Below are positions 1 to 23,039 of a DNA stretch of 64,000 nucleotides, piece by piece. The position numbers and the translations under genes are program-made. The stretch comes from a virus (taxonomy: Duplodnaviria; Caudoviricetes). Numbering within the stretch: the stretch's first letter is position 1; the number at the start of each line of letters is the position of its first letter. A model generated the notes under the pieces. That model searched no databases and had not been told where the DNA came from. It saw only the letters and a program-made list of their open reading frames with translations. Where the stretch lies: positions 32,001 to 96,000 of IMG/VR virus record IMGVR_UViG_3300029288_000092. One strand, given 5' to 3'.

Positions 1-2976
1 TCTGGAGAATCCAAAATTTGTAGCTTCTGGTTGTGTTGTTGGTAATGCCACCATATCCGATGACAATGCTTCATAAACATTTGTAAGAGTTGGATTTGCA
101 ATAAGTGATCTTGTAGCTGCTCCAGCATTACCATAAATTCTAGTAGATTCTCCGATTGTGTCTTGCCATAGAATCAAAACATCATTTGTAGCATCAACTG
201 AATCCAATAATGTTGTAGTGGTAGATATTGCTATATTACTATCAGCCACAATTTCTGCGCTAATATTTGCTAATGTTGCGTTAATATCTGCACCAATTGA
301 AAAATCAGTTCCAGCAATAAAACTTTCTGTGTTAGTTCCATCATATAGTGAAATAGTATCGCCAGTTTCCAAATTAGCAGATAACTTCAACACCTGTGCA
401 GCATAAATACCACCAGATGCTCCATCAACTAATTGATCACTAATAAGTAAAATTTCTTTCCATAATTTACTAACAGCAGCAACTGCTTGAAGCTGACCAT
501 AATTAACAGCATCACCCGGATTTGCACCATCTGCTAAATTGGTTATGCTATTGGAATCCATATCAATGTCACCAGACATGGTTCCACCAGCAAGCGGCAG
601 ATAATCTCCGGTCATCGAATCATATATTTCAGCTAATACCGCTTCAACATTTTCTCCAGTAAATCTAGTACCAGAATCAACCACGGGAACATCATCTGCT
701 GCAACTTGGTTTCCGGTAGTTCCCCAATCAATTTCTGCAGAACCAACTGCATCTGCAGCAATTTGATCAGTATCAACTGCAGAATTGGCAATTCCGAGTG
801 AAAGTGTTTTAGTTGAAGCACTTCCGGTGATAGTTAAATGTGTTGAAGTTATACTCATTGTATCGGATCCAGATGCTGTCAAATTATCGCCGATATCAAC
901 ATTAAATGTTTTCCAAGCATCTACAACTACGGAACCAATACTATCTCTTAATTCTTCTAAGGCACCATCAACATCAGTTGCAGTCCCTTCCCATGCAGTG
1001 CCAACAGGGACATCATCTGCTGCAACTTGAAACACATCAGTTCCCCAATTTATCTGAGTATCTTTAATTCCATCTGCTTTAACTGTGACTTGGCCAGTGG
1101 AAAATTCCATAGTGGTACTATCTATACTAACATATAAACTTCCATCTGTATATTGCAAAAGACCATTTCCAGCTCTAACAACATCCGCATTTAATTTAGC
1201 AGCGGTAACATTATCATCTATTATTTTAATGGTGCTTACAGAATTTGATCCCAACTTACTTTGTGTTATTCCAGAATCTTTAATACGAATAGATGCTGGC
1301 GTAGCAGAACTCGGAACATAACTTGGTTCCACAATATTATCAATTGCGCCACCCAGTGTTGCAGTTCCCCATTTGCCCATATAATTTGAACTAATCTCTA
1401 TTTTTAACGCTTCAAGTGATGCGTTGCTACTTGTCCAGGATGCATCACTTATCACTTCTACACTATCAACTGTTACATCTGCTAACTTATTTGTATAGTC
1501 TAATGTTACACCAATTGATAACCCGGATGCTGCTTCAGCAATAGTTGCAACAGCTGCAGCAGAACCTATTACTCCTTCATCTCCTTCTTTTTTGCCTTCA
1601 TCCATTTTTGACAAATACAAATTGACGTTTCCGCTTCCATCTGCTGATAAACTCAATCTGAATTCTGCTGTTGTCCCTGCAACATCAGTCCAAATTATAT
1701 AAGCGGTTGGATTTTCATATACATTATTAGATTCCAAAAATAAATCTGCAGAAAAAGAGTAAGTCCCAGTTGAAAATGGATCAATTTTTGATATAATAAT
1801 TCTATCAAAAGCAGAATCTGTTACTCTATATCCTGCACTAAGACCAGTTTCACCAGTTTTATAATCATCGTTATATAGTAATGAAGAATAACCAGATACT
1901 AATCTCCAATCATATTCTGTATCCGATCCATCGCCAACCCAACTCGTGGATGAAACTGCATTACCATCAACTCCGTCATCAAAATCATCCCAATCTGGAG
2001 GTTGCTGCGCATCGACCCACTCAATTGTTGAATCATCAACTTCATTTTCCAGAATAAAATTTCCAGATGTATCAAAATTATTACTTACAATCTTGGCACC
2101 ACTGACGAATGTCAAAGAAGTGTTTCCAATATTGGTAATATCGTTGCCATTCATATTGATGTCGCCCGACATTGTTCCACCGGCAAGTGGTAGATAATTA
2201 CCAACTGAGTCTCTTAATTCTTCTAAGGCACCATCAACATCAGTTGCAGTTCCTTCCCATGCAGTGCCAGTCGGAACGGATGCAGCATTAATTTGATTGG
2301 TACTGGTTCCCCAATCAATTTCTGCAGAACCAACTGCATCATCAGCAAGATGTTCTGTGTCAATTGCATTATCGGCAATCTGTGATGAACCAATACCATC
2401 GGCCTTAACTGCTACTTGATTTGAGCCATTAATTTCAATAGTAGTGTCATCAACTTTAACATCGAGCACTCCGGTTGTTAATCCAAGACCATCTCCAGCA
2501 AATGTGGCAGCAATATGAAAATCTGCACCAGCTGGTAAATATGACGTAATACTTAAAGAATTATCACTAGACGTGAATGCTAAATCGCCACCATTATCGG
2601 TTGCTGATACCTGAGATAAATCCGGAAAAGTAATTGTTTCAAAAAAATCACCAGAACCAATAGCACTATCAACATAAGATTTGGTAACCAGATCGGTGTC
2701 ACTAAATGTTTCTGCGGTTGTTGAAATAGTATAAGCCCCTATGCTCCAATCAGCACTTAGACTTCTGGTTCCATCAACTAATACAAAATCACTTTCACTT
2801 TTACTACCAACTTTATCAGCATTTAAATTTGTAATAACTCCAGTGTATGATATTGTAATAGGTGCAGCAACAGAATCATTTAAAGTAACACTCTTGACTT
2901 GAATAGAGTCATTAGTTTGATCATGCTTTTGAAATTCGCCATTTGCATTTAGCTTGATAAATTTTACATCAGCCAT
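1..2976 (-). CDS. Tail fibre-like structural protein, >990 aa, runs off the window (absent from the ORF track)
   Basis: ATG at 2976 with a GGAGG RBS. Manual translation gives MADVKFIKLNANGEFQKHDQTND...; fibre motifs YLPLAGGTMSGDINM, ITNLADGANPGDAVNYGQL, IADNAIDTEHLADDAVGSAEI. No stop seen before base 1. Confidence 0.85.
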   Translation of the reverse strand, partial: MADVKFIKLNANGEFQKHDQTNDSIQVKSVTLNDSVAAPITISYTGVITNLNADKVGSKSESDFVLVDGTRSLSADWSIGAYTISTTAETFSDTDLVTKSYVDSAIGSGDFFETITFPDLSQVSATDNGGDLAFTSSDNSLSITSYLPAGADFHIAATFAGDGLGLTTGVLDVKVDDTTIEINGSNQVAVKADGIGSSQIADNAIDTEHLADDAVGSAEIDWGTSTNQINAASVPTGTAWEGTATDVDGALEELRDSVGNYLPLAGGTMSGDINMNGNDITNIGNTSLTFVSGAKIVSNNFDTSGNFILENEVDDSTIEWVDAQQPPDWDDFDDGVDGNAVSSTSWVGDGSDTEYDWRLVSGYSSLLYNDDYKTGETGLSAGYRVTDSAFDRIIISKIDPFSTGTYSFSADLFLESNNVYENPTAYIIWTDVAGTTAEFRLSLSADGSGNVNLYLSKMDEGKKEGDEGVIGSAAAVATIAEAASGLSIGVTLDYTNKLADVTVDSVEVISDASWTSSNASLEALKIEISSNYMGKWGTATLGGAIDNIVEPSYVPSSATPASIRIKDSGITQSKLGSNSVSTIKIIDDNVTAAKLNADVVRAGNGLLQYTDGSLYVSIDSTTMEFSTGQVTVKADGIKDTQINWGTDVFQVAADDVPVGTAWEGTATDVDGALEELRDSIGSVVVDAWKTFNVDIGDNLTASGSDTMSITSTHLTITGSASTKTLSLGIANSAVDTDQIAADAVGSAEIDWGTTGNQVAADDVPVVDSGTRFTGENVEAVLAEIYDSMTGDYLPLAGGTMSGDIDMDSNSITNLADGANPGDAVNYGQLQAVAAVSKLWKEILLISDQLVDGASGGIYAAQVLKLSANLETGDTISLYDGTNTESFIAGTDFSIGADINATLANISAEIVADSNIAISTTTTLLDSVDATNDVLILWQDTIGESTRIYGNAGAATRSLIANPTLTNVYEALSSDMVALPTTQPEATNFGFSR
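719..2340. repeat. Dispersed intragenic direct repeats (719-753 = 2306-2340, 35 bp identical; 944-1003 ~ 2210-2269, 59/60 bp)
   Basis: Direct sequence comparison; the repeats encode duplicated fibre segments (DAVGSAEIDWGT; GTAWEGTATDVDGALEELR). Confidence 0.9.
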
Positions 2977-3008
2977 TTAAAATACCTCCAATTTTTTTTA
3001 GAAAAAAA

Positions 3009-13938: not shown

Positions 13939-16870
13939 AGCTACCAACGATAGCATAATCAGAAATTCTAAATTCCATTTCTGTGGAACTTACAGAAAAT
14001 CCCAATTTTAAAACAATTTGTCCGGATCCACTTGGCGCAGTTTCAGTCATAGATCCTGCTGTAGATGCTGATAAATAAATATTTTTATTAGATCCAGTAA
14101 AAGATAATCCACTTAATTTTCCAAATTTTCTAACTGTTAATTCATCACCATCTATAGATTCAACTATACCCAAGACTCTGAAATAATCCGATTCACTTCC
14201 AGCCCTTGCCTTTGTTGCTTTATTACTATCATTTATTGCAACAACTTGACCAAGAGTTATAGTTTCACCACTATCTTTTTCATATACACTAAATAAATCA
14301 GATTCAATATCATTTAGAATACTTATATTTACGCCCGAATCTTGTAAATTTCCACTTACATCAAATTCTGCAAAATTTCCGTCTGTAAATGAAACTGTTT
14401 CAGTTTTATCATCAAGATCAGATTTCAAAGTATCTAACGCATCAGAAATTGTAGTTCCTGCTATAGTTGTATCATTATCAAAATCATCTGATCCCTGCCT
14501 AAAAAGCACGCCTAAACCATTTAATACCCCAACAAGAAAATGTAAATTATCAACAATAACAGAAGAATTGTTTATCACATCTCCATATAACATAACATCA
14601 ACCAATATATGTGGAATTGGAGCGGAGTTATCTAAAAGAATAGAACTTCCTCCTCCAACATTTATAGATGTTCCAGATGTTACCATCAATCTACCACCTG
14701 AAACATGAATCAATGGATCTATAGAAACATTTCCTCTGACATCCACTGAAGATAAATTTAGCGTTGCATTTGATTGTTGTATAGCTTTTTGGCCATCTGG
14801 TGCATGCACTGAAGAATTCATAAATGACACCACGGCATTTGGATCAGTATTTCCGACATATAATGGAACACCAGAAACTGACCTGATTGTGAAGTCATTA
14901 GATGTTAAATCACCAGCAGCTATAACAACATTACCAGTTGAATATACTGCATAAACACTTAAAGTCGCATTAGATGTTATTGTTCCACCTGAATGATTTA
15001 TATCCCTAAAAACTCCAGTACCACCAGAGAAAGAAATATTTCCCATAATATGTGTTCTATGCAATCCAGATCCTTGCAAAGATACATTGGAAGGAATAAC
15101 AATCCCGGACATTGTTTCATCATATACTCCGGGACCAAGATATATTATTTCACCTGCTGATGCTATGGATGCAGCAAATGCCAACGATTTATAAGGCATT
15201 GCGATTGATCCATTTTCTCCAACATGTGAACTATTTACATCGACGTATATTATTTTATTAAATCCAACTGACAACTGAAGATCACCAATGTTAGATGCAA
15301 CCCAATTTCCAGAACCAACATCAAACCTCAAAACATCATATGGGTTCGGAGAAGCAGCATCAACATCATTTAAACCGTCCAATGCCAAATCCACATACAA
15401 ATGATTTCCAATATCATATTTAATTGTATCTGCATCTACTTTACTAGCTAAATATCCAGCTGTATCTCCACTGTGCATTTTGACCAATTCATCAGTTCCA
15501 GATACAGTTCCAAATTCCAAACCCGATTCATCAACTTTAACAACTACGGATTTTCCTGATTGCCCAACATAATTACTAGGAACATCATTTAAGTCAATAA
15601 AATCATGAGTATGGGTGGTATCAGATTTCCCGGATAAGAAACTGTCAATTTCACTTTCTTGATAATATATATCATCGTGATTGTGTGCGTCAGGAGGAAA
15701 TGTGGATGGTTTATTATCAACATTATCCCAATGAACAGAACCACCACCACCAGAAGTATTTAATTCAGTTTTTGTATAATAAAGCGTATTGTGGTCATGT
15801 GATGCTGGAGCAAATACACCAGGTATAACTTCCATGACGTGCAGAGTCCCATCAATTCTTAAAGTAACACCATCAACTTTATCAACTAATCTTCCAGGAG
15901 ATGCATCCGTATAGTCAGCAAGAACATTTATATCTGACATGGCAGTAAAAATAAGACCGTCACCAGCTGGATTAACAACTACCGATTCTCCAGGAAATCC
16001 ATATCCAATCGGAGTATCTGTTAAATCAATAAATCTATGGGTATGAACCGTATTTGCTTTCCCGGATAAAGAACTATCAACTTGAGATTTAGTGTAATAC
16101 AAACTACCATGATTATGAAGACTGCTTGCATCTAACCCACCAGTTAATGAATTATGTTGTGTAGATGTAAGATGATAATATTCAACAAGAGGAACACTTC
16201 CACCCTGTAAATTTTCCAATAGTGAATGATCGACTTTAGTGGTTCCTACCGATAATAATGCCTTCAGTGTATTTAAGTGTTCGGTTGCTGTTAAATGCCA
16301 ATGCCCACTCGGAACATCTCCACCTAATAATCCACCCAACGCTTCGTGATTTCCAACACCAGGAAGATTAACCCAAGCAGCTCCATTATATAAATAAATT
16401 CTATCTTGATCCTCAACATAGGATGCATATCCTTTGTTTGGCATAGTATAAGACCAAGCTGGAATATTTGCATTATATTGAGCAACCTGATTTGTTTTTC
16501 CGGCCCAAGCTCCCGTAGCACCAGCAGGAATTATATACCTATCTCTATTTGCTGGTGTTGGAGGTGGTGTAATTGTAGTTGAACTTAAAACTGATTGTTG
16601 CCAATCAATCTGATTCACAATATCAATCACAAAATCATATATCTGCTGTGAAGACCACATAACAGCATTGCTCGGTCCACCAATATCATTTAACTGAGCA
16701 CCATCTAAAAATTGAACATTTAAATTATTAACAAGAGCGGTGCTATTTACGACAAATGGTGCAGCTACAGTTTCTGATAGTGCAAGAGTCTTTAATGACG
16801 CACCATGTATACTTGGATCAATAACTGCAGGATCATTTGTCGTAGTATCGAATCTTAATAAAACTTCCAT
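13937..16870 (-). CDS. Multidomain fibre: DUF2793-like domain, beta-helix and C-terminal capsid-cement-like domain
   Basis: TPPPTPANRDRYIIPAGATGAWAG...YVEDQDRIYLYNGAAW; YLGPGVY...VSLQGSG; GETITLGQVV...YLSASTAG..T.TAP. Confidence 0.75.
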   Translation of the reverse strand: MEVLLRFDTTTNDPAVIDPSIHGASLKTLALSETVAAPFVVNSTALVNNLNVQFLDGAQLNDIGGPSNAVMWSSQQIYDFVIDIVNQIDWQQSVLSSTTITPPPTPANRDRYIIPAGATGAWAGKTNQVAQYNANIPAWSYTMPNKGYASYVEDQDRIYLYNGAAWVNLPGVGNHEALGGLLGGDVPSGHWHLTATEHLNTLKALLSVGTTKVDHSLLENLQGGSVPLVEYYHLTSTQHNSLTGGLDASSLHNHGSLYYTKSQVDSSLSGKANTVHTHRFIDLTDTPIGYGFPGESVVVNPAGDGLIFTAMSDINVLADYTDASPGRLVDKVDGVTLRIDGTLHVMEVIPGVFAPASHDHNTLYYTKTELNTSGGGGSVHWDNVDNKPSTFPPDAHNHDDIYYQESEIDSFLSGKSDTTHTHDFIDLNDVPSNYVGQSGKSVVVKVDESGLEFGTVSGTDELVKMHSGDTAGYLASKVDADTIKYDIGNHLYVDLALDGLNDVDAASPNPYDVLRFDVGSGNWVASNIGDLQLSVGFNKIIYVDVNSSHVGENGSIAMPYKSLAFAASIASAGEIIYLGPGVYDETMSGIVIPSNVSLQGSGLHRTHIMGNISFSGGTGVFRDINHSGGTITSNATLSVYAVYSTGNVVIAAGDLTSNDFTIRSVSGVPLYVGNTDPNAVVSFMNSSVHAPDGQKAIQQSNATLNLSSVDVRGNVSIDPLIHVSGGRLMVTSGTSINVGGGSSILLDNSAPIPHILVDVMLYGDVINNSSVIVDNLHFLVGVLNGLGVLFRQGSDDFDNDTTIAGTTISDALDTLKSDLDDKTETVSFTDGNFAEFDVSGNLQDSGVNISILNDIESDLFSVYEKDSGETITLGQVVAINDSNKATKARAGSESDYFRVLGIVESIDGDELTVRKFGKLSGLSFTGSNKNIYLSASTAGSMTETAPSGSGQIVLKLGFSVSSTEMEFRISDYAIVGS

Positions 16871-19053: not shown

Positions 19054-19203
19054 ATGTTGATCTGGTTATTATTAAAAATATCATTGGCCTCTTTGTTTTT
19101 ATTATTGATAGCAAAAACATATACAAAATTTTTCAATATACCAATTATGAATTTTGACAAAACATATTTTGTTGATTCTAGATTGGTAGAAATAGCTGGA
19201 TAA
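19054..19203 (+). CDS. Small membrane peptide (49 aa, MLIWLLLKISLASLFLLLIAK...)
   Basis: GAGGTG RBS, ATG at 19054, TAA at 19201; below the ORF-track size cutoff. Confidence 0.5.
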   Translation: MLIWLLLKISLASLFLLLIAKTYTKFFNIPIMNFDKTYFVDSRLVEIAG

Positions 19204-19250
19204 CTCCAGCTTTTTATTTTTAACATATAAAGGAGGAAGTATAAAGTGTA

Positions 19251-20072
19251 ATGAAAAAAAAGAAATACTTTATAGGATGTGATCCAGAAATAAGATTTAA
19301 CTACGACAAATATGAAATTGAATATCATTTATCAGGAAAACACATAGGGCACGATCATTGTAATAAAATAATTGAATTTAGACCTGATGCGGGGAAACCA
19401 ATTCAAGTCACTTCAAATATGGCATATCTTGTTATGTTATTCAAAAAATTTGTTAAAAAAGAAAATTATGATTTATTTTTGACCGGCGGAACCGGATCAC
19501 CATCCACCGGTGGCCATGTTCATTTTGATTATGGAAGTGAAGAAATTATAAACAGAACAATAAATATTATGGCTAAATGGAGCAACAAATTTAATTTATT
19601 AAGAACTGAACCTGGAAGAGATTCTAGGGAAAAACAAGGGTATGGAAATTATTTAGATAAAAGAATAAATGCTCCAACCAGTTTTGAATGGAGAGCACCT
19701 TCATCTTGGTTGAGTGATCCAAGGTGGACGTATTGTATGTTAACAATTGGTTGGGTGGCAGAAAAAAATCTGGATACTTTTGAAAAATCATTAGATTCGT
19801 GGAAAAAACACATAAGACACATAAAACAATATTTAACGGCAAAAGAATGGAAAATGTTTTATCCATACTATAATATGTGGTATTCATACGCAAATAAAAA
19901 CAAATATCTTCCAAATTTTATAAATATCGATAAATGGGAAGAATGGTTGAAAATAGTTCCAGCTAAAATAAAATTTATTTCTAAAAAGGCATTAGAACAA
20001 AATGAATTTGAAATAACGTATTTAATAAATAGAGAAACTGGAAAGTCTGTTCTTGTAAAAAGCAAAAAATGA
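19251..20072 (+). CDS. phiEco32-like COOH-NH2 ligase type 2 (amidoligase)
   Basis: IGCDPE, IEFRPDAG, TGGHVHF, R...GYG...R, FEWRAPSSW motifs. Confidence 0.8.
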   Translation: MKKKKYFIGCDPEIRFNYDKYEIEYHLSGKHIGHDHCNKIIEFRPDAGKPIQVTSNMAYLVMLFKKFVKKENYDLFLTGGTGSPSTGGHVHFDYGSEEIINRTINIMAKWSNKFNLLRTEPGRDSREKQGYGNYLDKRINAPTSFEWRAPSSWLSDPRWTYCMLTIGWVAEKNLDTFEKSLDSWKKHIRHIKQYLTAKEWKMFYPYYNMWYSYANKNKYLPNFINIDKWEEWLKIVPAKIKFISKKALEQNEFEITYLINRETGKSVLVKSKK

Positions 20073-20096
20073 TTTGTGAATCAGATTGGAGGAAAA

Positions 20097-20555
20097 AATC
20101 TCTAAAATCCAAGATTTTTTTCTCAGTGTATGAAGGGAGAAATTATATGACACGACCGTAGTTAAGTTAATTTGTGTTTATTTATTAAGATTTTATAGAG
20201 ATTATTTATTTGCTATGTCCTAACATAGCTATTTCAATTGCTTATTTTTACGGACTCATATCCTTTTAAGTAGTGTCTATGGGTTTTGTAAAAATAAGTT
20301 GTTATGACGACCGAAGGTCATAATAATATCCTGAAAATTGAAATAGGCCCGTTCCAGCCGAGACAAATGGAATACAATCATGTGAGTTTTAGACGAGGTA
20401 CTTATCACATGAATATACACTATTGGGTTTTAAGTGTATATGGTTGCACCTTGTAAGTGATGTTTTATTGGTTAATATTAGAGTACAAAATGACACTTGC
20501 CGTTATTCATGGATGCATTTATATTAGCTACCCATGAAGATTTATAATGGTGCAA
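20097..20555 (+). ncRNA. Large structured non-coding element, family unassigned
   Basis: At least 10 nested helices with G-U wobbles on the plus strand; no ORF of 60 aa or more. Confidence 0.6.
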
Positions 20556-20609
20556 GGAGAAATTTTCCAAAATATGTATTTAATTTTAAATTGATTGACA
20601 GGAGTTTTA

Positions 20610-21395
20610 ATGTGTAGAATTTTATTGATTAAAGATCTACAAAATTGGTCAATAGATAACCAATTATTGGAAGATCTCGATTACACCCAAGGAGGGGATG
20701 GAATAGGAATGGGGTGGTTTGAAAATGGAACACCAAAGAAAGTTGTAATTCCTATTTCTTCAACAAAACATATGGTCAATGCTGCAGTTAAACACTTGAC
20801 CAAATTAAAAGAAAATGGAATACAACAAATTTTATATCATACAAGAATGACATCAAGAGGTGCAAAAAACTTAGATAATATTCATCCATTTTTAATTAAT
20901 CTTGGTCCTCCAATGAATAAAAAGGCATGGTTCTGTCATAACGGAACCATTTCATCCGTTGGAAAAATAAAGGACAAAGAAGGTGAATGGAGTGACACAC
21001 GAACATTTGCAAAAATGTTAAATAGTCTTCCATGGGAAATAATTAAAATGAATCTGGAAGATAACCCAAACGAAACATTTGTGCTGTTAAACCAGGACGG
21101 GGAATTCATGAAGTTTCAAGAAAGAGTATATGATGGAAAAAGAATAGTAGATACTGAAGGACCAATAGAACATTCCCCAACCAGAATAGTTAATAATTCA
21201 AATATATCATATGGTTATAATAGCAGCGTGTGTGACCACTACAGAGATGACTATTATAAAAATGGAAGAAATATTTTTCCATACTCATCATCAAACAACA
21301 GTGGGAAAAAAGAAAATACAAATATAAATCATTCCAATGTAAATAACAAAAATGGAATTGATGATGATTATAATTGGCATGATGCATTATATTGA
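20610..21395 (+). CDS. Class II (Ntn) glutamine amidotransferase
   Basis: Likely true start MCRI at 20610 (AGGAG RBS) exposes the N-terminal Cys; DGIG, HTRMTSRG, NIHPF, HNGTI, SDT motifs. Confidence 0.88.
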   Translation: MCRILLIKDLQNWSIDNQLLEDLDYTQGGDGIGMGWFENGTPKKVVIPISSTKHMVNAAVKHLTKLKENGIQQILYHTRMTSRGAKNLDNIHPFLINLGPPMNKKAWFCHNGTISSVGKIKDKEGEWSDTRTFAKMLNSLPWEIIKMNLEDNPNETFVLLNQDGEFMKFQERVYDGKRIVDTEGPIEHSPTRIVNNSNISYGYNSSVCDHYRDDYYKNGRNIFPYSSSNNSGKKENTNINHSNVNNKNGIDDDYNWHDALY

Positions 21396-21885: not shown

Positions 21886-21913
21886 GAGTGAGAAAATTCT
21901 CACTCTTTTTTTT
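21886..21913 (+). terminator. Intrinsic terminator
   Basis: GAGTGAGAA-aa-TTCTCACTC followed by T8. Confidence 0.8.
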
Positions 21914-21924
21914 GTCCAGATTTT

Positions 21925-22413
21925 TCATCCATCCAAATTCTTTATTTTCTTAAATTCAGAAATTATTTCATAAACAACATTTATTCCAAGTTTTCTGAAA
22001 ACATCAGCATATTCAGTGTAATATATATCTCCGGGACTTGCCATCTGAGATATGTCCCTATGAAGAAATTTTACAAAATTTAATACATTTACTTTTACCA
22101 TATGAATGCTCAAATCCATAAAAGGCTGACCTAATAATTCGAACAAACCAATATCAAATTTTTCTTTAAATTGTTTATCTAAATATTCAAAAAAATCATT
22201 TCCAACATTAACAAGAGCATCATCCTTTGGAGATATCCATAAAAAATAAGGGGTGAATGTATATTTCAAACAATCATATAATTCTTTTTTATCAAAGTAT
22301 TCTTTTATTTTTTCTTCAGTCGATATTCCTCTTTCCTCAATTTCCTCGTATACTGGAATTGGAAAAACATCATCATAATCAGAATAGTCCCTGTAATTAT
22401 ATATTGATAGCAT
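21925..22413 (-). CDS. Hypothetical protein
   Basis: ORF coupled to thyX (TAATG overlap). Confidence 0.65.
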   Translation of the reverse strand: MLSIYNYRDYSDYDDVFPIPVYEEIEERGISTEEKIKEYFDKKELYDCLKYTFTPYFLWISPKDDALVNVGNDFFEYLDKQFKEKFDIGLFELLGQPFMDLSIHMVKVNVLNFVKFLHRDISQMASPGDIYYTEYADVFRKLGINVVYEIISEFKKIKNLDG

Positions 22414-23039
22414 TATTTATTTTCCTCCATTAGATCCTCAAAGAAAATAGAATATTCGGTTTTGGATAAAGTTCTTAACATCTTTTCAGCCAACTCTCTA
22501 ATTTCATAATGTGCTGCCTTTGTATTTCTCAATTTAATGAAATGCCTAAGACTTCTAATATTAAATGTTGCCATAAGATTTAATTTATAAACCCTAGGAA
22601 TAAATTGATTTATAATATCTTTATTTATATCCGGATTTCTTTGATAAAAATCTCTAATTTTAGATAAATATTCCACTGCCATTTTATTTAATTCTTCTGA
22701 TGAAGTGTTAACAATAAAATTTTCTATGCCCTCATCATTTTTTAAAAATGATTTTATAAATGTATATCTGGTGCTCTGAACCGAATAGGAAACACCAATT
22801 CTATGTCTAATCAAATGAACATGAGCATATTCAGAAATATCATTTATTTCCCAAGTAAAAGAGCAATGTTCAGAAACAGATTCATGCCCCTTTTCCAATA
22901 TAACTTTTCTTATAAGATCTTTATCTTTTTCACCCAAAGAATATAAATCACTATCCATTTTATCAAAAGAATCATGGCACATTCTAATTGCTTTTACAAC
23001 AACATCTGGAGGTGTTGCATGCATTAAAGAAACTATCAT
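22413..23039 (-). CDS. thyX: FAD-dependent thymidylate synthase
   Basis: GHESVSEH, RHRIGVSYSVQSTRY, NIRSLRHFIKLR...AHYEIR. Confidence 0.93.
   Translation of the reverse strand: MIVSLMHATPPDVVVKAIRMCHDSFDKMDSDLYSLGEKDKDLIRKVILEKGHESVSEHCSFTWEINDISEYAHVHLIRHRIGVSYSVQSTRYTFIKSFLKNDEGIENFIVNTSSEELNKMAVEYLSKIRDFYQRNPDINKDIINQFIPRVYKLNLMATFNIRSLRHFIKLRNTKAAHYEIRELAEKMLRTLSKTEYSIFFEDLMEENK

Follow-up and report, generated by a model that had tools for sequence, protein, structure and literature searches.

A conserved multi-helix RNA between a phiEco32-type ligase gene and a glutamine amidotransferase gene of an uncultured giant phage

Among bacteria and phages, large RNAs of complex conserved fold are rare, and OLE, ROOL, GOLLD and omega RNAs each opened new biology. 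The OLE RNA of Firmicutes, ~610 nt long, is a large multi-helix noncoding RNA (ncRNA) found in an operon beside the oap genes, and OLE and omega RNAs both adjoin the genes of their protein partners. ROOL and GOLLD are usually separate units near tRNA genes. Phages of the phiEco32 and PA11-TC6 type carry a cassette of genes for a COOH-NH2 ligase, an amidoligase, a glutamine amidotransferase (GATase) and an ATP-grasp protein; this gene set was reportedly predicted in 2009 and seen in many phages, and is said to have no known product or target. A role of the cassette in cell-wall modification and superinfection exclusion is suggested in PMC10580990, citing Iyer et al. 2009. Here we describe a previously uncatalogued, multi-helix RNA of ~357 nt that lies between a ligase gene and a GATase gene of an uncultured giant phage. 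The window analyzed is a stretch of 64,000 nt (bases 32001-96000) of the 119-kb IMG/VR record IMGVR_UViG_3300029288_000092, which is ~38% complete by estimate, with a G+C content of ~28-30%. Positions are those of the window and features are on the plus strand unless stated otherwise.

The RNA occupies most of a 537-nt gap (20073-20609) between two co-directional genes. The upstream gene (19251-20072) encodes a phiEco32-type COOH-NH2 ligase (Pfam PF14395, E = 1.2e-8) and the downstream gene (ATG at 20610, extending to 21395) a class-II GATase (Pfam GATase_4, E = 1.7e-6). The GATase gene is preceded by its own Shine-Dalgarno (SD) sequence, AGGAG at 20600-04, and its translated product begins with Met-Cys, as an N-terminal nucleophile enzyme needs. 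Searches of Pfam, PHROGs and PDB sequences gave nothing more for the ligase than PF14395, and nothing for a 134-aa gene that is next past the GATase gene. The initial annotation had described the gap as free of open reading frames (ORFs), and this was confirmed: TAA, TAG and TGA are each present in all six frames, so an alternative genetic code does not open the gap and stop-codon recoding is ruled out as its cause. The conserved structured part, which we call the type-1 RNA, spans 20212-20568 and contains the helices H1 to H11; it is thus shorter than the ~460 nt first proposed.

Relatives of the ligase are very few among the 5.8 billion proteins searched. Orthologous ligases (64-69% identity) are followed by gaps of 541-551 nt and more distant ligases (37-43% identity) by gaps of 577-639 nt, and the layout of ligase, ORF-free gap and next gene is the same in the relatives' contigs. 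The type-1 RNA was found in four lineages: W, the window; A, contigs L002, L003 and L004; B, L019/L006; and C, L007. Its gap measures 551 nt in lineage A and 541 nt in lineage B, and contig L007 ends inside the gap. The third-codon identity of the ligase between the window and A, B or C is 0.47-0.49, indicating that neutral sites are near saturation. An exact scan of metagenomes for the core motif yielded 17 matches, among which the true homologues are only L012 (the L003 contig again) and L019, which covers almost all of the lineage-B gap; the remaining 15 bear no relationship to the RNA and mostly have a much higher G+C. The corresponding pattern scan of viral contigs returned 0 matches, blastn and tblastn searches of GenBank phages with the region, the ligase and the GATase matched nothing, and neither single-protein pattern scans of viral contigs nor a scan of GTDB genomes with the ligase alignment had any yield. 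A separate sequence look-up showed nothing resembling the RNA beyond the genome of this phage. The family as known comprises four type-1 lineages and three lineages of a second type described below, all seven metagenomic and with the metagenomes searched by one exact motif.

The helices of the type-1 RNA are maintained by compensatory changes. We built a covariance model (R1) and a model-guided alignment of the four lineages for a core of 80 nt that comprises S1, H5 and H6. The model detects these four lineages and no others (E = 1e-17 to 1e-22); in the phage record it has no second match, the core being single-copy there. In the core alignment 90.7% of cells are paired and 10 of 22 pairs have changed on both sides, as compared to 0 of 500 shuffles that reach the observed double-change count, percentage paired or covariation score; when the 3' partner is slid by 1-3 columns, 0-3 double-changed pairs are obtained. 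Outside the core, H2, H4, H7 and H10 were aligned by their invariant neighbours and exhibit compensatory changes at most positions, and H11 does so at one. At a fixed register beside conserved loops, runs of 6-11 consecutive pairs recur in each lineage; the chance that two bases pair at such composition is 0.40, and each run has a P of ~4e-3 down to 5e-5 per lineage. RNAalifold on MAFFT alignments, in which variable helices are misaligned, recovered the core only, and the structures of the 5' and 3' domains come from a scripted helix-by-helix alignment, not from an unbiased aligner. Helices kept by compensatory changes above controls, here across the four type-1 lineages, are the generic mark of a conserved structured RNA, and we hold with high confidence that the gap contains a real, selected RNA structure.

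All of the helices listed in the initial annotation are present in the window's own sequence, and comparison with the relatives separates them into three groups. Seven are conserved with covariation (H1, H2, 20299-308/20317-26, 20352-56/20368-72, 20378-85/20405-12, 20413-21/20433-41 and 20506-12/20532-38). The long helix 20240-60/20278-99 stood in part, in that its outer portion recurs at the equivalent place in the relatives. The remaining three are found in the window only: a helix near the 5' end (20097-109/20189-203), H8 (20444-50/20549-55) and H9 (20453-59/20494-500), the last two forming in the W fold, and no convincing equivalent of any of them was found in lineages A (L002) or B (L019).

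The 5' domain begins with hairpin H1 (20212-18/20223-29), which has 4-8 bp of differing sequence at the equivalent place in all four lineages and is closed by GNRA tetraloops in L002 (GCAA) and L007 (GAAA). H2 (20229-39/20336-46) closes a three-way junction around H3 and H4; anchored on an invariant UAGG, it exhibits double compensatory changes at 6 of 9 aligned pair positions. H3 is a long hairpin (20240-20299, with an outer stem of 15 bp at 20240-54/20285-99) whose stems are not alignable position by position and whose apical pyrimidine-rich motif UCCUUWWAA is common to W, L002 and L019. H4 (20298-308/20317-27) carries a conserved 8-nt loop, RNCCGAAG (20309-16), and beside this loop 11, 6, 6 and 3(+7) consecutive pairs are formed at a fixed register in the four lineages. 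Eight of the 11 H4 positions covary, with three U-G pairs in L002.

Directly 3' of the invariant UAGG sits an H-type pseudoknot (20346-20373), in which S1 (GGC at 20346-48 with GCC at 20357-59) pairs into the loop of H5 (20351-56/20368-73). S1 is GGC:GCC in W and A and GGU:ACC in B and C, H5 has double changes in 4 of 6 pairs, and loop 3 reads GAGACAAA in the window with GAGACAA(A) as the consensus. The pseudoknot is followed by H6 (20378-20412), composed of a lower stem (20378-85/20405-12) with double changes in 5 of 8 pairs, a 3-nt bulge (20402-04), an upper stem GUUUU/GGWAY (20386-90/20397-401) and the hexaloop AGRCGA (20391-96); the upper part is nearly invariant and includes two U-G pairs in every lineage. 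H7 (20413-21/20433-41), directly 3' of H6, forms perfect stems of 9-12 bp with differing sequences in W, L002 and L019. In the 3' domain, H10 (20506-20538) is an irregular hairpin with a 7-bp stem (20506-12/20532-38) followed by AUGCA...GCUAC and a variable apex, which is 9 nt in W and has 40-50 nt insertions in A and B. The small hairpin H11 (20556-20568, GGAGA/UUUCC), with one covarying pair, delimits the conserved RNA on its 3' side and is found in W, L002 and L019; no U-tract lies 3' of it. Throughout, stems covary and loops are fixed, the conserved loop motifs being RNCCGAAG, RCCGAGACAA, GUUUUAGRCGAGGWAYUU and AUGCA...GCUAC.

This pattern bears on whether the gap is a generic hairpin-rich spacer that stabilizes the mRNA or blocks nucleases or Rho and has no fold-specific function. 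Such a spacer would suit the lineage-specific H8, H9 and 5' helix, but loops of 8-19 nt have stayed nearly invariant while the adjoining stems and the third-codon sites of the ligase turned over. Moreover, the pseudoknot covaries, the same architecture is found in four lineages, and the H10 motif is common to the paralogous module described below; we therefore consider a spacer improbable. An intrinsic terminator or simple stabilizer was likewise rejected, since H1 is the sole terminator-pattern match within the gap RNA, its U-rich tail is not kept in L002 and L019, and hardly any change is seen in the loops of H4, H5, H6 and H10.

A second explanation for the fixed loops is that conservation comes from one or more small coding genes or from a decayed gene. 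Across H5-H6, an ATG and reading frame common to W, L002 and L019 give similar peptides of 21-34 aa (M..H(V/I)(S/G)FRRG(T/I)Y..), and three of the six variable loop sites are third-codon positions. However, L007 has no start codon in this frame and a stop inside H6, the C-terminal halves of the peptides differ wholly in sequence and length, and the amino-acid changes (V/I, H/Y) are exactly the complementary changes in the stems, on which grounds an H5-H6 micro-protein was rejected as the source of conservation. Elsewhere the H4 loop is read in different frames among the lineages, all frames carry stops, and the longest plus-strand ORFs (50, 55 and 27 aa) are mutually non-homologous. Coding of this kind has very little chance of accounting for the gap.

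In the first ~135 nt of the gap, the only feature common to the lineages is a strong SD sequence with a very short ORF. As read from the sequence, the window has an SD-like GGGAG (20135-20139) and a 4-codon mini-ORF, ATG ACA CGA CCG TAG (20147-20161). At the equivalent place in all four type-1 lineages, an SD precedes an ATG by 6-8 nt and is followed by 1-8 codons; the encoded peptides (MTRP*, MNSS*, MNICNQCS* and MY*) are not conserved in sequence. A 30-codon ORF (20069-20161) that is in frame with the 4-codon mini-ORF, and whose start overlaps the ligase stop (ATGA), is absent from L002 and L019 and is probably fortuitous.

Folding energies and the types of base pairs indicate which strand carries the structure. 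The plus strand of the gap has a minimum free energy of -131.2 kcal/mol, as compared to -107.8 +/- 6.6 kcal/mol for dinucleotide shuffles (z = -3.56), and 0 of 100 shuffles fold as well; the homologous gaps of lineages A and B fold with z = -3.2 and -3.5. The minus strand reaches -105.9 kcal/mol (z = -5.2), so that the plus strand is 25 kcal/mol lower. That both strands fold better than shuffles (z = -3.6 and -5.2), and that the gene downstream differs between the two modules of this phage, would fit an element that acts as DNA, for example an origin of replication, a site for packaging or a recombination hairpin of the attC kind. The type-1 helices, however, contain ~10 G-U pairs per sequence and 0 A-C pairs, in agreement with the plus-strand G-U bias reported in the initial annotation, and G-U pairs would be mismatches in the complementary strand or in a cruciform. 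This bias identifies the structure as an RNA of the plus strand and not as a DNA cruciform or an antisense RNA. The pseudoknot and the multi-branch architecture argue against a DNA element as well, as do the invariable syntenic position and the lack of any trace of cassette exchange within either type, and we regard one as highly unlikely.

The RNA does not belong to a catalogued family. With the 4227 covariance models of Rfam 15, no match reached the gathering threshold in the whole window or in six homologous loci, and at E <= 10 the segment 19900-20800 gave only six noise matches (small nucleolar RNA, microRNA, and RAGATH-30 at 17 bits against a threshold of 59.5). Thus no Rfam match was obtained to ROOL, GOLLD, OLE, raiA, HEARO, RNase P, group I or II introns, riboswitches or known self-cleaving ribozymes. 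ARAGORN finds no tRNA or transfer-messenger RNA (tmRNA) in the window, and the mini-ORF differs from a tmRNA tag frame in that it starts from an SD and ATG of its own. From the letters alone no tRNA, tmRNA, RNase P or group I/II intron signature had been recognised, which these scans bore out, and the collection of homologues upheld a real, conserved structured RNA on the plus strand. A group I intron was rejected specifically: the ligase ORF is terminated by TGA, the GATase gene has an SD of its own and encodes an initial Met-Cys, and Intron_gpI gives no match at E <= 10. In addition, the segment between H4 and the 3' strand of H2, the required site of a P7 strand, is not conserved. The glutamine riboswitches (glnA RNA and Downstream-peptide motif, aptamers of ~60 nt) also gave no match at E <= 10.

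The initial annotation had offered a ribozyme as one possible function, and nothing points to one. A ribozyme that cleaves or processes itself, and so parts the ligase cistron from that of the GATase, would be in keeping with the compact conserved core, namely a pseudoknot and an irregular hairpin with invariant nucleotides. Against it, no known class matches even at E <= 10, a small self-cleaver would not need most of the 357 nt, and an intron is excluded in that the ligase ORF ends in a stop and the GATase must start at its own Met-Cys. We judge a ribozyme to be improbable, and even taken jointly the ribozyme, spacer, coding and DNA-element explanations are unlikely.

The ligase proved to have a paralogue with an RNA of its own. 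A profile search with the ligase alignment identified a second PF14395 protein (P0079) in the same phage record (G000 102873-103676) that is 42% identical to the first. Its locus (L029 1492-2943; G000 102873-104315) begins about 6.9 kb and ends about 8.3 kb past the window end. Directly after the second ligase lies an ORF-free gap of 639 nt that folds with z = -3.9 and is homologous to gaps of 583 nt (L026) and ~577 nt (L008) that follow 37-41% identical ligases. Covarying helices and conserved loops (CUGAUAAAAAAG and GGCGGRWAGC) of their own characterize these type-2 gaps, which end in a strong covarying hairpin of 10-11 bp that separates the RNA from the next gene. The downstream gene (P0080 in the window's phage) does not encode a GATase; its product is distantly related to the ATP-grasp protein encoded in the cultured-phage cassette, the two being collinear over 210 residues (E = 1e-3). 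The type-2 gaps also contain, close to their 3' end and immediately before the terminal hairpin, an ORF of 22-26 codons with a strong SD (GGAGGUG/GAGGUGA; L026 4231-4311 and L029 ~2778-2855, both plus strand). Its nucleotides are partly conserved and its reading frame is not, so that coding is doubtful.

The core model R1 has no significant match in the type-2 gaps, and H10 is the only structural element common to the two types. A strict H10 descriptor (stem of at least 6 bp, RUGC, 3-62 nt, GCUAC, stem) matches five of the six ligase-downstream gaps, as compared to a chance rate of 0.3 matches per 239 kb in shuffled genomes; the sixth gap (L026) has an H10 with one bulged A. The H10 stem covaries across W, L002, L019, L008 and L026. 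One other descriptor match occurs in the 119-kb record, on the minus strand before the window (G000 13970-14024), and with its G-U-rich stem is probably due to chance. A further motif, AAAAUCCAAGAU, occurs ~30 nt from the 5' end of both the window gap and the second gap and is not enriched elsewhere. Homology of the two types is suggested by H10 and this short 5' motif only. The pattern AAATCCAMRAT was considered as a phage promoter and rejected, with 20 matches in the window (one of them exact) against 22.5 expected.

Each PF14395-type ligase gene in this giant-phage clade is directly followed by a type-1 or a type-2 RNA, the ligase being the constant upstream neighbour. Since the downstream gene differs between the types (GATase versus ATP-grasp-like), the constant partner is the ligase, and the RNA appears to be tied to this enzyme.

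The reading we tentatively favour, to which we give somewhat less than an even chance, is that of an intercistronic RNA domain acting in cis through the binding of a protein or ligand. The RNA would probably be transcribed with the ligase as the intercistronic part of a ligase-GATase mRNA and would bind a specific protein or small molecule, the obvious candidate being the ligase itself or a product of the cassette. Binding would set the output of the downstream amide-bond enzyme, and perhaps act on transcript processing or stabilization. The signal might reach ribosomes via the SD of the mini-ORF, the UCCUU loop of H3 and the GGAG:CUCC hairpin of H11, possibly with pairing between the 5' flank and the GATase ribosome-binding site as a further element. 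In agreement with this proposal, the RNA is on the same strand as both genes and inside the operon. Terminator-like hairpins are found before the ligase (19194-19211) and after the 134-aa gene (21886-21905), and a pattern search of the window identified none between the RNA and the GATase gene. The SD and mini-ORF are found in all four type-1 lineages, the H3 loop is anti-SD-like, and a gap of 541-551 nt is kept wherever the next gene is on the contig, despite the low third-codon identity of the ligase. As weak evidence, W, L002 and L019 each have a segment of the 5' flank that is able to pair with the region where GATase translation starts.

Several observations weigh against a cis-acting domain. 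The helix that would close the RNA from 5' to 3' has 7-9 bp, is AT-rich and differs in place between lineages, and could be a chance pairing; when the 5' and 3' flanks are paired with duplexfold, long duplexes result in such AT-rich sequence and the outcome does not discriminate. To our knowledge, a size of ~360-450 nt exceeds that of any riboswitch or translational operator. In the type-2 module the downstream gene is ATP-grasp-like and set apart by the strong 10-11 bp hairpin, which links the RNA to the ligase, not to the downstream gene, and leaves the earlier suggestion of control over the GATase unsupported as it stood. The available lineages number only four for type 1 and three for type 2, and the binding partner and the regulation proposed here are putative, drawn from sequence comparison.

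The same link to the ligase is accommodated by a stable ncRNA that is processed from the operon transcript and works with the ligase as scaffold, cofactor or substrate carrier, which we see as possible though doubtful. In both RNA types and both paralogous modules, no neighbour but the PF14395 ligase is invariant, and the two types have diverged along with the ligase paralogues (42% identity) yet keep H10. The terminal covarying hairpin of type 2 could protect a 3' end, and the size, multiple junctions and conserved loops are, from general knowledge, more like large ncRNAs than leaders. On the other hand, no promoter or terminator delimits the type-1 RNA, and the ligase has 273 aa as compared to 287 aa in its homologue from a cultured phage that lacks the RNA, so there is no obvious extra RNA-binding domain. 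A stronger form of this explanation, in which the RNA is a working component, either a carrier or substrate on which the ligase builds or amidates a carboxylate adduct or an obligatory ligase cofactor, is decidedly unlikely. As a carrier, the RNA could serve a ligase that acts with the GATase in the first module or with the ATP-grasp enzyme in the second, by a logic analogous to that of tRNA-dependent transamidation.

Other features of the locus were observed in the course of the comparison. Just 5' of the type-1 ligase gene, a small membrane protein of 39-66 aa is predicted in the window (19054-19203) and in the relatives (L002 5606-5806, L006 1407-1607 and L007 1758-1877). Its C-terminal tail is weakly conserved (G-Y/C-E-Y/F-x-L/V-E/D-P/S-H/R-L/M-V), and the ligase might have this protein as a substrate or partner. 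The type-2 ligases, too, are preceded by small ORFs, which do not align with this protein. In W, L002 and lineage B, a ThyX thymidylate synthase gene (22413-23039 of the window, minus strand) and a conserved gene of ~350 aa run convergently to the ligase-RNA-GATase unit, indicating that the whole neighbourhood is syntenic. In lineage B only (ENA ERZ27252253, 10,843 nt), a Pyr_excise gene (T4 endonuclease V-like, 121 aa) lies between the GATase gene and the next small gene. At the other end of the window, positions 1-3008 hold no listed ORF of at least 90 aa on either strand, and the rest of the window is tightly packed.

The occurrence of two divergent RNA types after two paralogous ligases in one phage points to a specific relationship between ligase and RNA. 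A regulatory role would make the RNA unusually large for its kind, and a role as partner or substrate would change the understanding of the whole cassette and give the phiEco32-type cassette an RNA target. The small known distribution, seven metagenomic lineages, limits generality for now.

OLE, ROOL and GOLLD, and riboswitch or operator leaders are the nearest described RNAs, in each case by analogy only. Like OLE, the type-1 RNA is a large multi-helix RNA inside an operon that adjoins a gene tied to it, and both were recognized by covariation and by conserved loops and junctions. It differs from OLE in having no Rfam match and a phage host, in its neighbour, an amide-bond ligase instead of OLE's membrane protein, and in its restriction to seven metagenomic lineages. 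With ROOL and GOLLD it shares a phage-borne location, a length of hundreds of nucleotides, a complex conserved fold and the lack of an agreed function, but the Rfam models of these families give no match, the RNA sits in an enzyme operon, and the window has no tRNA. The position between a cistron and the next ribosome-binding site, the SD- and anti-SD-like elements, the mini-ORF and the possible 5'-flank pairing resemble riboswitches, protein-binding leaders and the long-range translational coupling of the RNA phage MS2. Unlike riboswitches, the RNA is two to three times larger than known aptamers and matches no aptamer class; its expression-platform pairings are not kept column by column, and the gene downstream of type 2 is a different one. 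Finally, the flanking PF14395 ligase and class-II GATase, with an ATP-grasp-like partner in the second module, are those of the phiEco32/PA11-TC6 cassette. The cassette genes of phage TC6 (MG676466) abut, with no large gap and no RNA, whereas here the cassette is split into two modules, each of ligase, RNA and partner enzyme.

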